This document shows positions 4,424 through 47,884 of a stretch of DNA of 64,000 nt, one piece after another. Every line of letters begins with the position of its first letter. Positions within the stretch are counted from its first letter, which is position 1. The translations under genes were made by a program, and so were the position numbers. Where the stretch lies: assembly GCA_014360805.1 (NCBI GenBank), contig JACIWU010000001.1, forward strand, positions 3,327-67,326, read 5' to 3'. Origin of the DNA: Chloroflexota bacterium (GTDB lineage Bacteria; Chloroflexota; Anaerolineae; DTLA01). The notes under the pieces were generated by a model. It was not told the DNA's origin and did no database searches. It worked only from the letters and a program-made list of their open reading frames with translations.

Positions 4424-4690
4424 CCCTCGGCGCCCCCCCAGCGTAGAATCCAGCGCCCGCCTGCCGTGCATCCGGACAGGCCCCCAGCCCGCAGGGCTTC
4501 GCCCCTTTAGCCCGATGCCTCGGCGTCGAGCGGACATGCAGACGTGCCGCGGGCAAATCCAGAATCCTCCACGCCCTCGGCGTCCCCAGCGTAGAATCCA
4601 GCGCCCGCCTGCCGTGCATCCGGACAGGCCCCAGCCCGCAGGGCTTCGCCCCTTTAGCCCGATGCTTCAGCGTCGGGCCGACATGCAGGT
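4424..4690. repeat. Tandem direct repeat, two copies of a 149-bp unit at about 93% identity, in the divergent intergenic region between the subtilase gene and the BNR lipoprotein gene
   Basis: Copy 1 is 4424-4572 and copy 2 is 4573-about 4690. Both contain gcccgcctgccgtgcatccggacaggc and agcccgcagggcttcgcccctttagcccgatgc(t/c)tc(a/g)gcgtcg. Hairpin-capable segments gcctg...caggc and gcccga...tcgggc. Confidence 0.85.
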
Positions 4691-9580: not shown

Positions 9581-9611
9581 CGCGGGACGGCTCGGCGAAG
9601 GCGCCCGCGCG

Positions 9612-9720
9612 CTGTCCCCTCTCCCGCTGGGAGAGGGCTAGAGTGAGGGATGCCCGCCTGCACGGGGGTTCGTCCCGCGCTAAAGGGGCGAGGCCCCCTT
9701 CGGGGCTAGCGCCAGTCCAT
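9612..9720. repeat. REP-like structured intergenic element, CCCCTC-hairpin family (copy 1)
   Basis: Contains cccctctcccgctgggagagggctagagtgaggg, then cgggggttcgtcccg, then ggcgaggcccccttcggggct (UUCG-loop hairpin). Homologous over about 100 bp to 40760-40860. Located 30 nt after the glgP stop. Confidence 0.5.
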
Positions 9721-40739: not shown

Positions 40740-40935
40740 TCACCCCCGACCTTCGGCCACCCCCTCTCCGCTCGCGGAGAGGGGGATTGAGGGGTGTGAG
40801 GCCGGCATGGGCACGGGGCTAAACCCCCGCGCTCAAGGAGCAAAGCCCCTTCGGGGCTGCGAATAGCCCGCAGGGCTTCGCCCATTCAGCCCGATGCTTC
40901 AGCGTCGGGCGGGCTTGGGAGAGGGTTAGGGTGAG
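40740..40935. repeat. Composite REP-like element: three successive hairpins homologous to 9612-9720, followed by the 52-nt core of the 4424-4690 tandem repeat and a GAGGG-rich tail
   Basis: Perfect 12-bp palindrome ccccctctccgc/gcggagaggggg (40760-40785). ggggctaaacccc hairpin. agccccttcggggct hairpin. Then agcccgcagggcttcgcccattcagcccgatgcttcagcgtcgggc (40868-40913). Confidence 0.55.
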
Positions 40936-42871: not shown

Positions 42872-43345
42872 ATGTCGGGCATCGTCAGAAACACACGCGC
42901 GGCCTGGCCCATCTGGGCGGCGCGGGTTGCCGTCGCCGTCGTGTGCGCCTGGAACCTGTCGGCGGCGTTCCCGTTCACCCTGGCCCCGGCCCGCTACGCC
43001 CCCGCCTTTGAGGTGATCGGCGCTGGCGGCGAGGCTCTCGTGCGCGGGATGGGCATCCTGTTCCTCATGTGGCAAGTGCCGTTCCTGCCCGTCATCCGGC
43101 ACCCCCGACGCCATCGCGCTTGCTTCCGGGTCATCCTCGCCATGCAAGCCATCGGCCTGGCCGGCGAGACGTGGATGCTGGCGACGCTGGTGCCCGGACA
43201 CGAGGCCCTCCGCGCCACGGGCATGCGGTTCGTCGCCTTTGATGCAGCGGGGTTGGCGCTGCTCGCCGCCGCCTACGCCCTCGCGCGAAGGGCGCCCGCA
43301 GGCCGGGCTTCCGGCCCGCCTACGGGCTCTCGCAGTATGGCCTGA
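42872..43345 (+). CDS. Hypothetical membrane protein (4 TM)
   Basis: 157 aa from ATG 42872 (GGAGG RBS). Hydrophobic helices. Confidence 0.5.
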   Translation: MSGIVRNTRAAWPIWAARVAVAVVCAWNLSAAFPFTLAPARYAPAFEVIGAGGEALVRGMGILFLMWQVPFLPVIRHPRRHRACFRVILAMQAIGLAGETWMLATLVPGHEALRATGMRFVAFDAAGLALLAAAYALARRAPAGRASGPPTGSRSMA

Positions 43346-43371: not shown

Positions 43372-43400
43372 TTGACGCTTGAACCGATGGAGGCTAAACT
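43372..43400 (+). promoter_or_regulatory. Sigma70-type promoter candidate for the first GT39 gene
   Basis: TTGACG (43372-43377), 17-nt spacer, TAAACT (43395-43400). Confidence 0.45.
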
Positions 43401-43443
43401 CCACACACCGACCCATGCGAATACTGCATATCGGAGGATTCCC

Positions 43444-44958
43444 ATGACAACCGAAACCCGCGATACCCGGCTTGCATGGCTGCGACGGCACCACGAGGTC
43501 ATCCTCCTGGGCATCATCCTCCTCGCCGCCCTCGCCCTGCGCCTGTACGGCCTGGAGCGCAGCAGCCTTTGGCTGGATGAACTGATGCAAGTTCAGGCCG
43601 CGCGCCGCCCGTGGTGGGCCGTGCCAAAGGCCGCCCTGGGACATGATGGCTCAGCGCCTCTAGACTACCTTATCACGCACTTCGTGTACTACCACATCGG
43701 CCGCTCCGAGGGCATCCTGCGCCTGCCGGCCGTGCTGTGGGGCGTCCTCTCCGTCGCAACGGTTTACTTCCTCGGCAAGCGCATGTTTGACAAGACGACG
43801 GGATTCCTGGCCGCCGCGCTCCTCACCATCCTCCCGTCCCACATCTACTACTCGCAAGAGGTGCGCCCGTACAGCCTACCCGCGCTCATGGTGCTGCTGG
43901 CGACCTTCGCGTTCTACCATGCCGTGAGTAGGAACACCCGTGGGGCATGGGCGCTGTACGGGATTACCCTGGTCATTGGGATGTACTCCCACTACTACGT
44001 GGCCATTGTGGGCATTCTCCACGGCGCGTACCTGGTGCTGATGGCGCTGGCGAAGCGCCTGCCGTGGAATCGCCTGCTCCCGTACGTGGTCGCGGCGTGC
44101 GCGGCGGGACTGCTGTTCCTGCCCTGGCCCCTGTCGGACACGATCACGACATCCCAAACTTTTCGCATGCCGGGCGTAGGTACCTTGTTCTCCGCACCGT
44201 TTGTGTCCACAGGGGTGAACTACAAGTTCACCCTGTTACATCCGCTCACGTGGTTTGCAGGGTTCGTGTGGCTTTCCGCACTTGCGGGAGTCGTTCTAGT
44301 TATCACGGGAGGCTCGGCCGCACGGAATAACATAGGGCTCCTTGCTGTGGTCGTTCTATTCGGACTAACAGCGGTTGTCACACTGGACTACACAGCACCC
44401 TACTTCTTCTCCACCCGCCAATTCCTTCCCTTTGCGCCGCTGCTGATACTCCTGGGGTCGGCGGGGGCGCTCGCCATCGTTCGCGCCGTGTCGCGACGCC
44501 TGGCGCCGCACCTGCCCGGCGATGCCGTCGCGGCCGCGGCCGCTGTCGTACTCGTCCTCTTCGCTGCCGGAACTCTTTCCGGCGCGCTGTCGGACATCTA
44601 CCGTTACAAGAAGGAAGACTGGGGAACCGCAAGCCGGTATCTAATCCAGTATGCCCACCAAAACGATGTCATCATCGCTCGCCATCCGTATTTCAAATAC
44701 TACTACGCACCCGAACTAGCCAACCAGATTATCGCGCTCACAGACGTGGGTACAATCCAGACCCAGGCCAACAAACATGCCCGCGTGTGGATCCTGGCGG
44801 AAACCGTGTGGCGCAGATATGGCTACGTGCCCGACGTGGTCGCGTGGATCGAAGCCACAAAACCGCTGGAAGTCAAGAGGTTCAGCGGCCTGCGGCTCTA
44901 CCTCTATTCCGCCACACTCACGCCCCAGCAATTGGAAGCGACTCTGAAGCAGTGGTAA
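43444..44958 (+). CDS. Glycosyltransferase family 39 (PMT/ArnT-like GT-C) membrane protein, paralog 1
   Basis: 504 aa. Multi-TM N-terminal core with a DE motif in the first loop (LWLDELMQV). The N-terminal 240 aa and the final 20 aa are nearly identical to the downstream paralog. Confidence 0.8.
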   Translation: MTTETRDTRLAWLRRHHEVILLGIILLAALALRLYGLERSSLWLDELMQVQAARRPWWAVPKAALGHDGSAPLDYLITHFVYYHIGRSEGILRLPAVLWGVLSVATVYFLGKRMFDKTTGFLAAALLTILPSHIYYSQEVRPYSLPALMVLLATFAFYHAVSRNTRGAWALYGITLVIGMYSHYYVAIVGILHGAYLVLMALAKRLPWNRLLPYVVAACAAGLLFLPWPLSDTITTSQTFRMPGVGTLFSAPFVSTGVNYKFTLLHPLTWFAGFVWLSALAGVVLVITGGSAARNNIGLLAVVVLFGLTAVVTLDYTAPYFFSTRQFLPFAPLLILLGSAGALAIVRAVSRRLAPHLPGDAVAAAAAVVLVLFAAGTLSGALSDIYRYKKEDWGTASRYLIQYAHQNDVIIARHPYFKYYYAPELANQIIALTDVGTIQTQANKHARVWILAETVWRRYGYVPDVVAWIEATKPLEVKRFSGLRLYLYSATLTPQQLEATLKQW

Positions 44959-44992
44959 GATGTATTATGAACCCTTGCAAGGGAGGATTCTC

Positions 44993-46501
44993 ATGACAAC
45001 CGAAACCCGCCATACGCCACTCGCATGGCTGCGACGGCACCACGAGGTCATCCTCCTGGGCGCCATCCTCCTCGCCGCCCTCGCCCTGCGCCTGTACCAA
45101 CTGGAGCAGGACAGTTTCTGGATTGACGAACTGACCCAAATCAACCATTCCCGCGTGCCGCTCCTTCGGGTATTCAAGGCCGCCCTGCTTGATGATGGGA
45201 GCACACCCCTAGACTACCTTGTTACCCACTTCGTGTACTACTACATCGGCCGCTCCGAGGGCATCCTACGCCTGCCGGCCGTGCTCTGGGGCGTCCTCTC
45301 CGTCGCGACGGTTTACTTCCTCGGCAAGCGCATGTTTGACAAGACGACGGGATTCCTGGCCGCTGCGCTCCTCGCCATCCTTCCGTCCCACATCTACTAC
45401 TCGCAAGAGGTGCGCCCGTACAGCCTACCCGCGCTCATGGTGTTGCTGGCGACCTTCGCGTTCTACCATGCCGTGAGTAGGAATACCCGCGGGGCGTGGG
45501 CGCTGTACGGGATCACCCTGGTCATCGGGATGTATTCCCACTACTACGTGGCCATTGTGGGCATTCTTCATGGCGCGTATCTGGCGCTGATGGCGCTGGT
45601 GAAGCGCCTGCCGTGGAACCGCCTGCTCCCGTATGTCATCGCGGCGGGCGCGGCGGGACTGTTGTTCCTGCCCTGGGTACTGGCAGACCAGTTCAGATCG
45701 GGCTATGCGTTCCAGATGCCCAGCAAGAGCGTCTTGCTTTCGGCAGCCTTCGTACCCCGCGGCGGCGATGCCCTCATCGCAAACTTCCGCCCGCTGACCG
45801 TATTCGTGGGTTTCGTCTGGGCCTGTGTGCTGGTGAGCGTGGGCTTGAGCATCAGGGGTGGCTCGGCCGCACGAAATAACATGGGGCTGCTCGCACTGGT
45901 AGTCCTCGGCGGAATGGCCGTGGCAGTCGTACTGGACTACCTGGGTTCCCACTTCTTCCCCACTCGCCATTTCCTTCCCTTTGCGCCGCTGCTGATACTC
46001 CTGGGGGCGGCGGGGGCGGTAGAAGGCATGCGCGGAGCAGCCCGTTCCGTCCGCAGAGAGCCGACGGAGGCCATGAACACCCTCATAGTAGTATTGCTCG
46101 TGGCACTCGCAGCATGGACGCTGGCAACACCGATTTCGGAGGTGTATCGGCACAAGAAGCAGGATTGGCGCGGTGTAGGGCGATATCTTCTTCGTAACGT
46201 CGCACAGGGGGACGTAGTACTCCTCCGCATGACATTTGATGTGGAATTCTACGCACCTGAGTTGAAAAACCATATCCAGCCCCTTCGCAGTCTGAAAACC
46301 ATCCAAGATGCAGCAAAAGCCCATCAGCGTGTGTGGATAGTGGATTGGTCAAGCGCGCTCCGGCGCTACGTGCCCGATGTGGCCCATTGGCTGGAAGCGG
46401 AAAAGCCTCTGCGAATCCGAGGGTTCACCAGCATGGAACTCTACCTCTACTCCGCCACACTCACGCCCCAGCAATTGGAAGCCACCCTGAAGCAGTGGTA
46501 A
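44993..46501 (+). CDS. Glycosyltransferase family 39 (PMT/ArnT-like GT-C) membrane protein, paralog 2
   Basis: 502 aa. FWIDELTQI DE motif. The 5' 750 bp and 3' 80 bp are near-identical to paralog 1, and the middle periplasmic part is divergent. Confidence 0.8.
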   Translation: MTTETRHTPLAWLRRHHEVILLGAILLAALALRLYQLEQDSFWIDELTQINHSRVPLLRVFKAALLDDGSTPLDYLVTHFVYYYIGRSEGILRLPAVLWGVLSVATVYFLGKRMFDKTTGFLAAALLAILPSHIYYSQEVRPYSLPALMVLLATFAFYHAVSRNTRGAWALYGITLVIGMYSHYYVAIVGILHGAYLALMALVKRLPWNRLLPYVIAAGAAGLLFLPWVLADQFRSGYAFQMPSKSVLLSAAFVPRGGDALIANFRPLTVFVGFVWACVLVSVGLSIRGGSAARNNMGLLALVVLGGMAVAVVLDYLGSHFFPTRHFLPFAPLLILLGAAGAVEGMRGAARSVRREPTEAMNTLIVVLLVALAAWTLATPISEVYRHKKQDWRGVGRYLLRNVAQGDVVLLRMTFDVEFYAPELKNHIQPLRSLKTIQDAAKAHQRVWIVDWSSALRRYVPDVAHWLEAEKPLRIRGFTSMELYLYSATLTPQQLEATLKQW

Positions 46502-46502
46502 A

Positions 46503-46514
46503 CCCCTTGCGGGG
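46503..46514 (+). terminator. Short GC hairpin (CCCC TTGC GGGG) immediately after the GT39 paralog 2 stop, a weak terminator candidate
   Basis: Perfect 4-bp stem with a 4-nt loop, 2 nt after the TAA. No U-tract. Confidence 0.25.
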
Positions 46515-46570
46515 GATGCGGCGCGACGGCCGGCCACTCGCGCGCCTGCCCGCGCTGAAAGGAGGCACCT

Positions 46571-47884
46571 ATGGCAACGTCGCCGGCCCGGAAGTCCAAT
46601 CGGGTAACCCTGTCGCTCCTGTTGCTGCTTGCGGCCTTCGGTGCATGGCTGGCCGTGATTGCAGTCCTTCCCCATGCGCAGGCATGGACCCACTGGGTGC
46701 CCATCTCGCCATATGGCTGCATCAACCCTGACATCGCGGCCGATCCCTTCGGGGACGTGTACGCCGTCTGGGAACGCGAGGCCAACGGCGATATCTTTCT
46801 CGCGCGGCGGCACGGCGACGCCTGGCTTTCGCCCGTCAACCTCAGCAACTCGGCGGACGCATCCAGAACACCCCGCGTTGCCGCCGACTTGCGCGGATGG
46901 CTCCACGTCGTCTGGGCCGAAGGCAACGAGGGCCAGTCCGACATCTACTACACATCGTGGAACCGCTCGGCCTGGTCCACGCCCCGCAACCTTTCGCAAT
47001 CCGCTGCCACCGAGTCGCTGGCCCCCGCCATCGCCGTGGACGACGCCAACAGGGTGCACGTAACGTGGGTGGAGAAAGCCGGCACAAACCGCGAGGTTCT
47101 CTACACGTCCGGCCAAGGCGACGGGTGGGCTGCGCCGCTGAATCTGTCCAACACGCCCGGACGGTCAGAGGACCCCGACATCACGCTGGATGCCAACGGG
47201 AATGTGCATGTGGCCTGGCAGGAAGGTATGCCGGCCGCGCCCGAAATCCTTCATCGCTACCTTACGCCGGACGGCTGGGCGCCCGTCGCCAACGTGTCGC
47301 GCAACCCCTCGTTCTCGCGCCATCCGGCGGTCGTCGGAGACCGACAGGGCCGCGTGATTGCCGTGTGGGAAGATAACGCCACCGGCACGTCGGAGTTGCA
47401 TGCGGCCATGTGGGATGTCGGCGAGTGGTCCCCCGCACGGAATGTCGTCATCATGCCCAGCGGCGCCAGTAGCCAAATTGACCTCGTCGTGGATGACGCC
47501 AACGTGCTCCACGTGCTTTGGGACGACCTCGTGGTGGATCAGTGGGAAATCTACTACATCCGGTGGAATGGGGCGGCGTGGTCCGGCGTGCGAGAACTGT
47601 CCCATAACTGGGGGTACTCGTTCTGGCCGGCGCTTGCGTTGGACAGCCGGGGCATCCTTCACGCCGTGTGGACCGACTCGGAGCCGTTTTTCCCGTCCGA
47701 GGGCATTGTGTATTGCTGGCAGGCCGCCGATTCCCCGCTGCCCCTGTATCCATCTGCCACGCCTGCCCCGACAGCCACACCCACGGCGACCGCCACCGCC
47801 GCGCCCACCGCACCGAGCACGCCAACGCCAACTCCCACGCCAACGCCATTCCTCCGCTACTTGCCCATTGTCATGCGCCCGTGA
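46571..47884 (+). CDS. Secreted repeat protein (BNR/sialidase-like beta-propeller repeats) with a C-terminal PT-rich tail
   Basis: Signal/TM helix. At least five repeats of about 45 aa with a conserved P.NLS(N/Q)(S/T)...VHV.W.E motif. C-terminus ...PTATPTATATAAPTAPSTPTPTPTPTPFLRYLPIVMRP. Confidence 0.7.
   Translation: MATSPARKSNRVTLSLLLLLAAFGAWLAVIAVLPHAQAWTHWVPISPYGCINPDIAADPFGDVYAVWEREANGDIFLARRHGDAWLSPVNLSNSADASRTPRVAADLRGWLHVVWAEGNEGQSDIYYTSWNRSAWSTPRNLSQSAATESLAPAIAVDDANRVHVTWVEKAGTNREVLYTSGQGDGWAAPLNLSNTPGRSEDPDITLDANGNVHVAWQEGMPAAPEILHRYLTPDGWAPVANVSRNPSFSRHPAVVGDRQGRVIAVWEDNATGTSELHAAMWDVGEWSPARNVVIMPSGASSQIDLVVDDANVLHVLWDDLVVDQWEIYYIRWNGAAWSGVRELSHNWGYSFWPALALDSRGILHAVWTDSEPFFPSEGIVYCWQAADSPLPLYPSATPAPTATPTATATAAPTAPSTPTPTPTPTPFLRYLPIVMRP

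Follow-up and report, generated by a model that had tools for sequence, protein, structure and literature searches.

Mosaic structure of tandem GT-C glycosyltransferase genes in a Chloroflexota bacterium

Results

Two adjacent glycosyltransferase genes, here called A and B, form a mosaic in which four similar blocks (87 to 95% nucleotide identity) alternate with three divergent blocks (51 to 57%). They lie in a stretch of 64,000 nucleotides from a Chloroflexota contig (JACIWU010000001.1), the whole of which is referred to as the window. The mosaic, the contrast at synonymous sites that goes with it, the reassortment of the same modules across the protein family, and the variation in cassettes and copy number among close relatives were all observed. 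The explanation that we favor, at a probability of about 75%, is that A and B are tandemly duplicated GT-C enzymes that were made mosaic by repeated homologous recombination, with the cassettes as exchangeable modules.

Gene pair and block structure

A and B are same-strand paralogs that are 67% identical overall and recur with a period of 1549 nt. Both are full-length, intact open reading frames, each with its own ribosome-binding site (RBS), and GGAGGATTC[C/T]C precedes the ATG of both. No terminator-like site was found between them, and they are probably co-transcribed. Upstream of A, one promoter-like site was found against 0.9 expected by chance. The features of the locus are as follows.

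43372..43400, + strand: promoter-like site TTGACG-17-TAAACT, about 44 nt upstream of A, a weak consensus match only
43433..43443, + strand: RBS region of A, common to both genes, GGAGGATTCCC; the 1549-nt repeat unit begins here
43444..44958, + strand: gene A (P0001), 504 aa, PMT_2 / GT-C fold glycosyltransferase
44959..44992, + strand: spacer between A and B, the duplication junction, 34 nt, with the RBS of B at its end
44993..46501, + strand: gene B (P0003), 502 aa, PMT_2 / GT-C fold glycosyltransferase
46502..46570, + strand: 3' flank of B, homologous to the sequence that starts right behind the stop codon of the single glycosyltransferase gene of L014, and to that following the DUF6798 gene of H111_75
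46571..47884, + strand: signal-anchored BNR-like protein with a Pro/Thr-rich C-terminal tail, in a strain-variable stretch; missing from the syntenic contig L014, as is gene B

The BNR-like protein matched BNR_4 at 23.8 bits, which is under the cut-off. The other neighbors of the pair encode an ABC-2 transporter, an ECF sigma factor, a response regulator, a molybdopterin dehydrogenase, and a RACo protein; none of the neighboring genes is a sugar-activation or glycan-assembly gene, and the neighborhood holds no glycan-synthesis cluster.

Alignment of A with B divides each gene into seven blocks, S1 to S7; the loops, helices, and sides of the membrane given for them are predicted.

43444..43551, + strand: A block S1, codons 1-36, cytoplasmic N-terminus and TM1; similar, 90.7% nt identity to B, pS 0.11
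43552..43659, + strand: A block S2, codons 37-72, external loop 1 with the invariant W43-x-D45-E46; divergent, 55.6% nt identity to B, pS 0.67
43660..44127, + strand: A block S3, codons 73-228, end of external loop 1 (EL1), TM2-TM7, EL2; conserved GT-C module
44128..44403, + strand: A block S4, codons 229-320, external loop 4, TM8, TM9; divergent, 57.2% nt identity to B
44404..44478, + strand: A block S5, codons 321-345, FF-x-TR-x-FLPFAPLLILLG, short external loop and TM10; similar island
44479..44895, + strand: A block S6, codons 346-484, cytoplasmic loop, TM11, C-terminal alpha/beta external domain; divergent
44896..44958, + strand: A block S7, the last 20 codons, LYLYSATLTPQQLEATLKQW, and stop; similar
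44993..45100, + strand: B block S1; similar
45101..45208, + strand: B block S2; divergent external-loop-1 cassette
45209..45676, + strand: B block S3; similar, and 99-100% nt identical to L009 gene 2
45677..45952, + strand: B block S4; divergent, nearest relative P0008 (64% aa)
45953..46027, + strand: B block S5; similar island
46028..46438, + strand: B block S6, TM11 and C-terminal domain; divergent, nearest relatives P0008 (62% aa) and P0009 (60% aa)
46439..46501, + strand: B block S7, last 20 codons and stop; similar

The earlier note on this DNA had described the two genes as tandem mosaic paralogs, which they are, although the pattern is finer than it had supposed. The RBS and the last 20 codons are indeed common to both genes, the tail agreeing at 20/20 amino acids and 57/60 nucleotides; in other family members S7 is at most 78% identical in amino acids. 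The 750 bp of near identity claimed for the 5' ends are real for codons 1-36 and 73-228 but are broken by codons 37-72, and they end at about nucleotide 690. A divergent center of 230 residues had likewise been proposed; the divergence spans about codons 229-485 and is interrupted by the conserved island at codons 321-345. Conversion had been suggested for the ends of the genes, and the ends are similar, but the largest of the four similar blocks, S3, is internal. That block is 94.0% identical in nucleotides and 96% in amino acids (pS 0.17, pN 0.02; 28 differences), and S5 is 86.7% identical (pS 0.11) and contains an exact run of 36 nt; the longest exact run common to the two genes is 60 nt. 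S6 stands at 51.2% nucleotide and 41% amino acid identity (pS 0.74). Uniform divergence along the whole gene, which would have spoken against the mosaic, was not seen.

Synonymous sites and nearest relatives by block

Between A and B, pS/pN was 0.11/0.08 in S1, 0.17/0.02 in S3, 0.11/0.14 in S5, and 0.22/0.00 in S7, compared with 0.67/0.37 in S2, 0.66/0.34 in S4, and 0.74/0.41 in S6, so that synonymous divergence of 0.11 to 0.22 in the similar blocks alternates with saturated values of 0.66 to 0.74 in the divergent ones. Codons that specify the same amino acid in both genes are identical in 183/209 cases (88%) in similar blocks versus 52/112 (46%) in divergent blocks (Fisher p=9e-15), and a Sawyer-type permutation of the polymorphic sites of A versus B gave p<=0.0005. 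The heterogeneity along the genes thus far exceeds chance, and the proposal of a cassette-like pattern produced by recombination or gene conversion is supported. In the similar blocks pS is the same as between the flanks of this locus and the orthologous flanks of L014 and H111_75 (0.15 to 0.16).

The nearest neighbors of A and B switch from block to block, in both block identity and block type, and in the divergent blocks they are found in other genomes rather than in the sister gene. S2 of A is closest to P0005 (80% aa) and P0004 (75% aa), and S2 of B is identical to that of L009 gene 2 (P0006) and 80% identical in amino acids to those of P0009 and P0010. S4 of A is orthologous to that of gene 1 of H111_75 and L014 (94% aa, pS 0.14), and no relative above 51% aa was found for S6 of A. 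Correlations between block identity matrices fall as low as 0.05 to 0.33 for S2, the C-terminal domain, and S7. The two marks of a recombination mosaic, a sharp alternation of low and saturated synonymous divergence and incongruence between blocks, with the paralogs closest to each other in some blocks and to genes of other genomes in others, are both seen here.

Two explanations that dispense with repeated recombination were weighed against these data. If an old duplication had been followed by unequal purifying selection, the transmembrane core being constrained while the external parts drifted, S3 should be well conserved, and it is indeed the most conserved part across the family (67 to 96% aa), with a pN of 0.02 between A and B. 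Constraint on the protein cannot hold synonymous sites, however, and these differ as sharply between the two kinds of block as do the same-amino-acid codons. When S3 of A or B is compared with that of more distant orthologs of similar protein identity (L001 and L003), pS rises to 0.37 to 0.46, which means that the low pS between A and B does not come from constraint at the nucleotide level. Together with the change of nearest neighbors between blocks, this makes constraint without recombination very unlikely. Still less likely is a recent duplication followed by rapid adaptive change in the substrate-recognition parts, the second option of the earlier note. The divergent blocks do include outward-facing loops and the C-terminal domain according to the proposed topology, but positive selection raises dN and not dS, and in these blocks dS is saturated and dN/dS is about 0.2 to 0.3, a ratio that, like any age for these blocks, is unreliable at such saturation. 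They are also nearer to sequences of other genomes than to the sister copy. The contrast at synonymous sites and same-amino-acid codons thus points to recombination, rather than constraint or fast protein evolution, as the source of the mosaic, and the divergent blocks are old or imported sequence and not rapidly mutated sequence.

GC3 is 0.72 to 0.88 in the similar blocks, 0.61 to 0.76 in the divergent blocks (0.61 in S6 of B), and 0.80 to 0.92 in the flanking genes. The lower GC3 of the divergent blocks is compatible with import as well as with GC-biased conversion.

Cassettes and copy number in related contigs

Exact-sequence look-ups with A and B, using short as well as long start codons, gave no contig, and the proteins came up only in a homology search. 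A scan of metagenomes with the family alignment yielded 80 loci, among which only L014, L015 (the same as L009), and L016 (the same as P0008) are close relatives; the remaining loci, at 25 to 43% identity, were left out. The variation in copy number and cassettes that the earlier note had expected in related strains is present in these contigs. Close relatives of the pair have either a single gene, as in L014, or two genes with other cassettes and other downstream genes, as in H111_75 and L009. The single copy of L014 may reflect a loss or may be ancestral. L014 and H111_75 belong to the same species (flanks 98.3 to 98.7% identical, gene 1 99.8% identical). Between gene 1 of the window and that of H111_75, S2 and the C-terminal domain have been replaced (45 to 58% nt identity), the remainder is 85 to 98% identical, and the flanks are 93 to 97% identical. 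Gene 2 of L009 matches B at 99 to 100% nucleotide identity for about 600 nt and then at about 60%. More widely, modules are reassorted among related contigs, and each cassette type recurs in independent proteins.

All of these sequences are short-read metagenome assemblies, in which repeats of 94% identity invite mis-joins, and we give a small chance to the explanation that the assembler joined paralogs or co-existing strains through their common blocks. Contigs L002, L004, L005, and L007 end within S3, and L007 opens with the 127-mer that ends L005 and from there leads elsewhere. A strain chimera is conceivable for L009, in which H111-like sequence gives way to window-like sequence inside a block that is identical in both. 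Against such an origin for the mosaic in the window, the similar blocks of A and B have not been collapsed, as their 28 differences in S3 and their longest exact run show, and the junctions from S1 through S2 to S3 are about 110 nt each, which fits inside a single read. The gene-spacer-gene layout, with a homologous 34-nt spacer, is found in three independent assemblies (the window, L009, and L002), more distant tandem pairs occur in L010 and L011, and the recurrence of cassette types in independent proteins is likewise hard to reconcile with mis-joining.

The layout of conserved arms flanking variable segments also brings to mind programmed variation by a diversity-generating retroelement, an invertase shufflon, or a set of expressed and silent cassettes, but this is extremely unlikely. 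A and B are complete reading frames that carry their own RBS; only weak, chance-level inverted repeats were seen; a scan of 14 neighboring genes turned up neither a reverse transcriptase nor a recombinase; and the changes, at about 50% identity, include all substitution types and are not adenine-directed. The hallmarks of programmed diversity (inverted repeats, silent cassettes, A-biased changes, and, in those 14 genes, a reverse transcriptase or recombinase) were thus not found at this locus. Constraint alone, positive selection after a recent duplication, and programmed variation were each rejected on the evidence set out for them above.

Protein family, fold, and topology

The label GT39 given by the earlier note corresponds to the NCBI product name only. 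In a Pfam scan at E<=0.01, PMT_2 (PF13231; gathering cut-off 26.1 bits) was matched by A at 61.0 bits (residues 73-228) and by B at 59.1 bits, a weak STT3 match for B being the only other hit; PF02366, MIR, and PMT_4TMC, the domains expected of GT39, were not matched by A or B at that threshold. A precomputed match to PF02366 exists only in the relatives P0008 and P0010. The NCBIfam mannosyltransferase model scored 39 bits against a cut-off of 900, and the NCBIfam ArnT model did not match A or B. A profile search of the PDB gave only a 36-residue match to archaeal AglB and none to ArnT or Pmt chains; the family placement therefore draws on Pfam and on the fold.

AlphaFold models of A and B had pLDDT values of 88.7 and 89.0. 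Foldseek matched them at a probability of 1.00 to ArnT (5ezm, TM-score 0.60), human STT3A (0.60 to 0.61), PglB (5ogl, 0.52), and Pmt4 (9i5k, 0.50); ArnT was the best fold match, followed by STT3/PglB/AglB and Pmt, which places the proteins in the GT-C (GT-C_A) fold. Except for Pmt4 9i5k, the Pmt matches covered only about 300 columns at TM-scores of 0.32 to 0.35. The acidic residues that GT-C enzymes have in the first external loop after TM1 are present as D45-E46, which is invariant in 25 sequences, and within the close family W43, L47, and Q49 do not vary either. A and B both keep the invariant residues D45-E46, R93, R141, R325, and D408/D407; B has the same secondary-structure layout as A and retains every family-invariant residue.

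Topology was inferred from predicted secondary structure (DSSP helices), hydropathy, and the positive-inside rule. In the resulting model of 11 transmembrane helices, the proposed inner loops (about 61 residues) hold 16 Lys+Arg by manual count and the short outer loops (about 64 residues) hold 4, a distribution that agrees with the positive-inside rule. The C-terminus of both models is a small alpha/beta domain. The similar blocks would then correspond to the N-terminus with TM1, to TM2-7, and to the EL5/TM10 stretch, and the divergent blocks to external loop 1, a variable transmembrane module with loop 4, and the C-terminal external domain. The periplasmic core that had been proposed as the divergent part would hold for external loop 1, loop 4, and the C-terminal domain, but on this topology TM8, TM9, and TM11 diverge too. 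GT-C enzymes are described as combining a conserved module with a variable one and as binding the acceptor in the space that separates luminal loops from a C-terminal dome (PMC10154233).

Discussion

Under the favored reading, A and B would be intact glycosyltransferases of the PMT_2 family, predicted to depend on polyprenyl-phosphate sugars, that arose by one tandem duplication whose 34-nt junction is common to a sister lineage. Interlocus gene conversion between the copies would keep the N-terminus and TM1, the TM2-TM7 core, EL5/TM10, and the last 20 codons nearly identical, while strongly divergent alleles that circulate among related populations would take the place of the segments in between, with the similar blocks as homology arms. 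Three modules would be exchangeable in this way: the second half of external loop 1, the variable transmembrane module with loop 4, and the C-terminal external domain. These modules may set acceptor (or donor) specificity, the two enzymes may move sugar to different extracytoplasmic acceptors, and shuffling at the strain level may diversify the cell-surface glycan. With two copies only, gene conversion is inseparable from recent duplication plus import of foreign segments.

A broader and quite tentative idea is that this is a natural module-swapping system, in which Anaerolineae-like Chloroflexota recombine the three GT-C modules on a constant lipid-donor-binding chassis and the homogenized blocks provide ready-made arms for recombination. 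Selection might then preserve, at a single locus, a large stock of ancient cassette alleles and copy-number states; phages or grazers that recognize surface glycans would be examples of the selecting agent.

If the recombination reading is true, nature has already run the GT-C domain-swap experiment that glycoengineers want. The block borders would show at which points the enzyme tolerates an exchange of external loop 1, of the variable membrane module, or of the C-terminal domain, and the natural chimeras (A, B, and P0004-P0017) could be used to map the module that sets acceptor or donor specificity. A strain-variable surface-glycosylation locus would also have been identified in uncultured Chloroflexota, a phylum whose cell-envelope glycobiology has, to our knowledge, been little studied.

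The pair is a new example of a known, textbook evolutionary process, clean and structurally interpretable, with no new principle, and it is a clear, unsurprising case of the predicted outward-facing parts of a putative surface-sugar enzyme being reshuffled by recombination. Searches of the literature on GT-C, Chloroflexi, GT39, and gene conversion in glycosyltransferase paralogs found nothing about the A/B family. A close precedent in process is the futA/futB fucosyltransferase pair of Helicobacter pylori, in which interlocus gene conversion led to mosaic divergence (PMC2583950); a model of mosaic divergence in tandem paralogs has also been put forward (bioRxiv 10.1101/2025.10.29.685298). There, as here, paralogous glycosyltransferase genes trade segments through homologous recombination, so that similar and divergent stretches alternate and surface glycans vary, or in the present case would vary, from strain to strain. 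The futA/futB products, however, are soluble GT10 enzymes of a pathogen and are also subject to phase variation, whereas A and B are GT-C membrane proteins of an environmental Chloroflexota whose blocks, judging from the topology, appear to follow the structural modules of the fold.

Among enzymes, A and B resemble ArnT/PMT_2-type proteins (solved ArnT, 5EZM) in scoring above the cut-off for PF13231, in their best fold match, and, as predicted for A and B, in the layout of TM1 and EL1, in juxtamembrane helices with an acidic catalytic pair, and in a C-terminal external domain. They differ in that ArnT has 13 transmembrane helices versus the 11 inferred here, and neither ArnT nor Pmt chains match A or B at the sequence level. 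Since Chloroflexota, as far as we know, lack lipid A, the acceptor of A and B should differ from that of ArnT. Like the GT39 family of CAZy (Pmt1/2/4, POMT, bacterial Pmt), they have the GT-C fold and, in external loop 1, an Asp-Glu pair, and NCBI calls them "glycosyltransferase family 39 protein," but they do not match PF02366, MIR, or PMT_4TMC at E<=0.01. A likeness to TMTC proteins is seen in distant family members of A and B, which bear TPR tails. The embC-embA-embB genes of mycobacteria encode tandem paralogous GT-C arabinosyltransferases that have a common transmembrane core with distinct external domains and acceptors, and that are twice as long as A and B. We know of no report of Emb proteins as recombination mosaics with strain-variable cassettes. 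Emb structures are among the fold matches of A and B.

Tandem PMT_2-family glycosyltransferase genes

The two tandem paralogs, referred to here as A and B, are arranged as follows:

Gene A: 43444-44958, + strand, ORF of 504 aa
Gene B: 44993-46501, + strand, same strand as A, ORF of 502 aa

The spacer between them is 34 nt, the repeat period is 1549 nt, and both genes start with GGAGGATTC[C/T]C followed by ATG. There is no third copy within the window. A promoter-like site lies 44 nt 5' of A and no terminator-like site was found between A and B, both on weak evidence. In the public record, A and B each appear as 'MAG: glycosyltransferase family 39 protein [Chloroflexi bacterium]' on a contig of 96 kb, and the earlier note likewise called them GT39. 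The Pfam, NCBIfam, and fold results reduce that name to an annotation label. Both proteins match Pfam PMT_2 (PF13231; 61 bits for A and 59 for B, cut-off 26.1). Neither matches PF02366 (PMT) or any MIR or PMT_4TMC model at E<=0.01, and NCBIfam gave nothing beyond matches far below threshold. AlphaFold2 models built from a 25-sequence alignment (A, pLDDT 88.7 and pTM 0.89; B, 89.0 and 0.89) have the same secondary-structure layout. A Foldseek search with model A returned the GT-C fold, with ArnT (5ezm) as the top match at a TM-score of 0.60, followed by human and yeast STT3, AglB, PglB, Pmt4, AftA, DPY19, and ALG9. Invariant across 25 relatives, A and B included, are D45-E46 in the first loop, R93, P131, S137, R141, Y143, R325, and D408 (D407 in B). 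Together, these results support the assignment of A and B as PMT_2-family GT-C enzymes that are ArnT/PMT-like.

Block mosaic of A and B

In a codon alignment, A and B are 72% identical in nucleotides and 67% in amino acids, and this identity is strongly uneven along the genes.

Consecutive blocks of the A-B alignment: codons, nucleotide identity, and predicted part of the protein from the inferred topology (TM, membrane helix; EL, external loop)
S1: codons 1-36; 90.7%; N-terminus and TM1
S2: codons 37-72; 55.6%; variable second half of EL1
S3: codons 73-228; 94.0%; TM2-TM7 and EL2, 'conserved GT-C module'
S4: codons 229-320; 57.2%; long loop 4 and TM8-9
S5: codons 321-345; 86.7%; short FFxTRxF loop and TM10
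S6: codons 346-485; 51.2%; cytoplasmic loop, TM11, and C-terminal domain
S7: last 20 codons; 95.0% (20/20 amino acids); final strand and helix

The longest exact run common to A and B is 60 nt. Near-identical ends of 750 bp (5') and 80 bp (3') around a divergent core had been described, and this holds roughly. However, the 5' similarity stops near nt 690 and has S2 as a divergent island inside it, and the supposed core contains S5 as a conserved island.

Origin of the mosaic

The A-B mosaic is a product of recombination. Synonymous sites mirror it: the proportion of synonymous differences (pS, Nei-Gojobori proportions per block) is 0.11, 0.17, 0.11, and 0.22 in S1, S3, S5, and S7, and 0.67, 0.66, and 0.74, i.e., saturated, in S2, S4, and S6. 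Among codons for the same amino acid in both proteins, 183/209 are identical in the similar blocks versus 52/112 in the divergent blocks (Fisher p=9e-15), and a Sawyer-type permutation of the A-B polymorphic sites gave p<=0.0005. The earlier note was right in kind in reading the mosaic as recombination. In S3, either gene differs from the single-copy orthologs on contigs L001 and L003 by a pS of 0.37 to 0.46 at comparable protein identity, so the low A-B value there does not reflect nucleotide-level constraint. The pS of the similar blocks matches the divergence obtained when flanking housekeeping genes of the window are compared with those of a sister lineage (0.15-0.16). For all these reasons we rejected differential constraint, since synonymous sites are mosaic too, and also positive selection after duplication, since pS is saturated in the divergent blocks.

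All sequences are short-read metagenome assemblies, and the A-B mosaic could in principle be an assembly artefact and contig L009 a strain chimera. Four related contigs do terminate in S3, and L007, from the related MAG H111_75, opens with the last 127 nt of contig L005 of that MAG and then jumps elsewhere. Four points speak against an artefact in the window itself: the differences between A and B in the similar blocks are scattered, a single read can cover the S1/S2/S3 borders, the gene-spacer-gene layout is the same in independent assemblies, and every cassette type is found again in independent proteins.

The third-codon-position GC is 0.72 to 0.88 in the similar blocks (at least 0.81 in all except S7 of A and S5 of B) and 0.61 to 0.76 in the divergent blocks, below most similar blocks; flanking genes, at 0.80 to 0.92, overlap the similar blocks. 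This suggests either that the cassettes are foreign and were imported or that gene conversion was GC-biased where the blocks were homogenised.

Variation among close strains

The copy-number and cassette variation that had been proposed as a check is present in related strains. Contigs L005, L002, and L007 of H111_75 are syntenic with the window upstream (~93-94% nucleotide identity), and the 36.7-kb contig L014 on both sides (~93%). L014, H111_75, and L009 represent one species; between L014 and H111_75 the flanks are 98.3 to 98.7% and the first glycosyltransferase gene 99.8% identical. Compared with the window, H111_75 gene 1 is 85 to 98% identical except in S2 (~53%) and the C-terminal domain (45-58%), and gene 2 differs in S2 (43-50%). 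Within H111_75, both copies share S1-S3 including S2 (pS 0.04-0.13), and therefore homogenisation occurred independently there too. From ~45020 to 45620, including S2, B is 99 to 100% identical in nucleotides to L009 gene 2, and identity then drops to ~60%.

In L009, a DUF6798 membrane-protein gene comes after the second gene, in place of the BNR-like gene found in the window. Such multi-span proteins of ~610-660 aa follow the second glycosyltransferase gene in the sister species (L009 3061-4899; L007 100-2085) and are missing from the window; the cargo of the variable stretch therefore differs between lineages. L014 has a single glycosyltransferase gene of the gene-1 type, without B, DUF6798, or the BNR-like gene, and directly 3' of its stop stands the sequence found downstream of B in the window and of DUF6798 in H111_75. 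Either L014 has lost the second copy or it has kept a single-copy haplotype. The homology of the 34-nt spacer in the window, L009, and L002 (24/34 identical, manual count) points to one duplication that would predate the split of these lineages.

After its first 127 nt, L007 (1-2304) has a 46-nt stretch similar to the 3' end of the gene for the small membrane protein that precedes gene 1 (window 43256-43301), followed by the DUF6798 gene and a 3' flank of the L014 type. Either this arrangement is an artefact of the assembly graph, or the H111_75 population contains a deletion variant.

Reassortment in the family and predicted modules

With 19 proteins above ~38% identity, the close family is small, and the nearest neighbour by amino acid identity changes from block to block. 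S2 of A is closest to proteins P0005 (80%) and P0004 (75%), with B at only 52%; S2 of B is 100% identical to P0006 (L009 gene 2) and 80% to P0009 and P0010. S4 of A is 94% identical to gene 1 of H111_75, L009, and L014 and 46% to B, and S4 and S6 of B are nearest to P0008 (64% and 62%). S7 is the same in A and B and at most 78% identical in all other members. When each block was clustered at 70% identity, the resulting types proved to be reassorted among proteins: in P0004, for example, EL1 is of the A type, the TM module of the P0008 type, and the C-terminal domain of the P0006 type. S4, S5, and the TM11 part are inherited together (r=0.68-0.82); variation in EL1, in the C-terminal domain, and in the tail is almost independent (r=0.05-0.49). 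L010 and L011 have tandem pairs as well, and L001, L003, and L016 (P0008) have single copies in other genomic contexts. The second copy in L010 (5944-7485) has one in-frame stop, is split in public calls into 89-aa and 416-aa products, and may be a pseudogene or reflect a sequencing error.

DSSP helices, hydropathy peaks, and a manual Lys+Arg count in loops (16 in ~61 residues of proposed inner loops versus 4 in ~64 of short outer loops) are best fitted by a topology of 11 TM helices that places the N-terminus inside and the C-terminal alpha/beta domain outside. In this model, EL1 spans residues 37 to ~90 and has juxtamembrane helices, as in ArnT (PMC7801869); a W-x-D-E-L-x-Q motif inside S2 is invariant. 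GT-C structures have one conserved and one variable module, and the acceptor sits between the luminal loops and a C-terminal 'dome' (PMC10154233). Given that position and the predicted topology, the divergent blocks would mostly be parts expected to touch the acceptor, which may link them to specificity.

The mosaic pair is a real finding and adds a new case to a well-known process, interlocus gene conversion plus allelic cassette exchange in surface-glycan genes. Precedents are the H. pylori genes futA/futB (PMC2583950) and models of how tandem paralogues diverge as mosaics. Added interest lies in the exchanged blocks, which seem to correspond to GT-C structural modules of the predicted topology, and in the variability of the locus among near-identical strains.

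Neighbouring genes and repeats

The genes neighbouring A and B are not a glycan-synthesis cluster. Directly 3' of B, 46571-47884 (+) encodes a signal-anchored protein with BNR/sialidase-like repeats (BNR_4, 23.8 bits, below cut-off) and a Pro/Thr-rich C-terminal tail (…PSATPAPTATPTATATAAPTAPSTPTPTPTPTPFLRYLPIVMRP); the gene is missing from the syntenic L014. Its product is a possible O-glycosylation substrate of A and B. Directly 5' of A, 42932-43345 (+) encodes a small hydrophobic protein of ~137 aa with no Pfam match, and its synteny is kept in L005 and L014. Dispersed copies of an intergenic repeat of ~48 nt (AGCCCGCAGGGCTTCGCCCnTTnAGCCCGATGCTTCAGCGTCGGGC), 90 to 96% identical to one another and containing internal palindromes, lie at 40865-40912, 4486-4533, and 4633-4678. 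Just 3' of the copy at 40865-40912 is a second short motif, GGGAGAGGGTTAGGGTGAGGG, with a near-copy, GGGAGAGGGCTAGAGTGAGGG, within 9600-9660.
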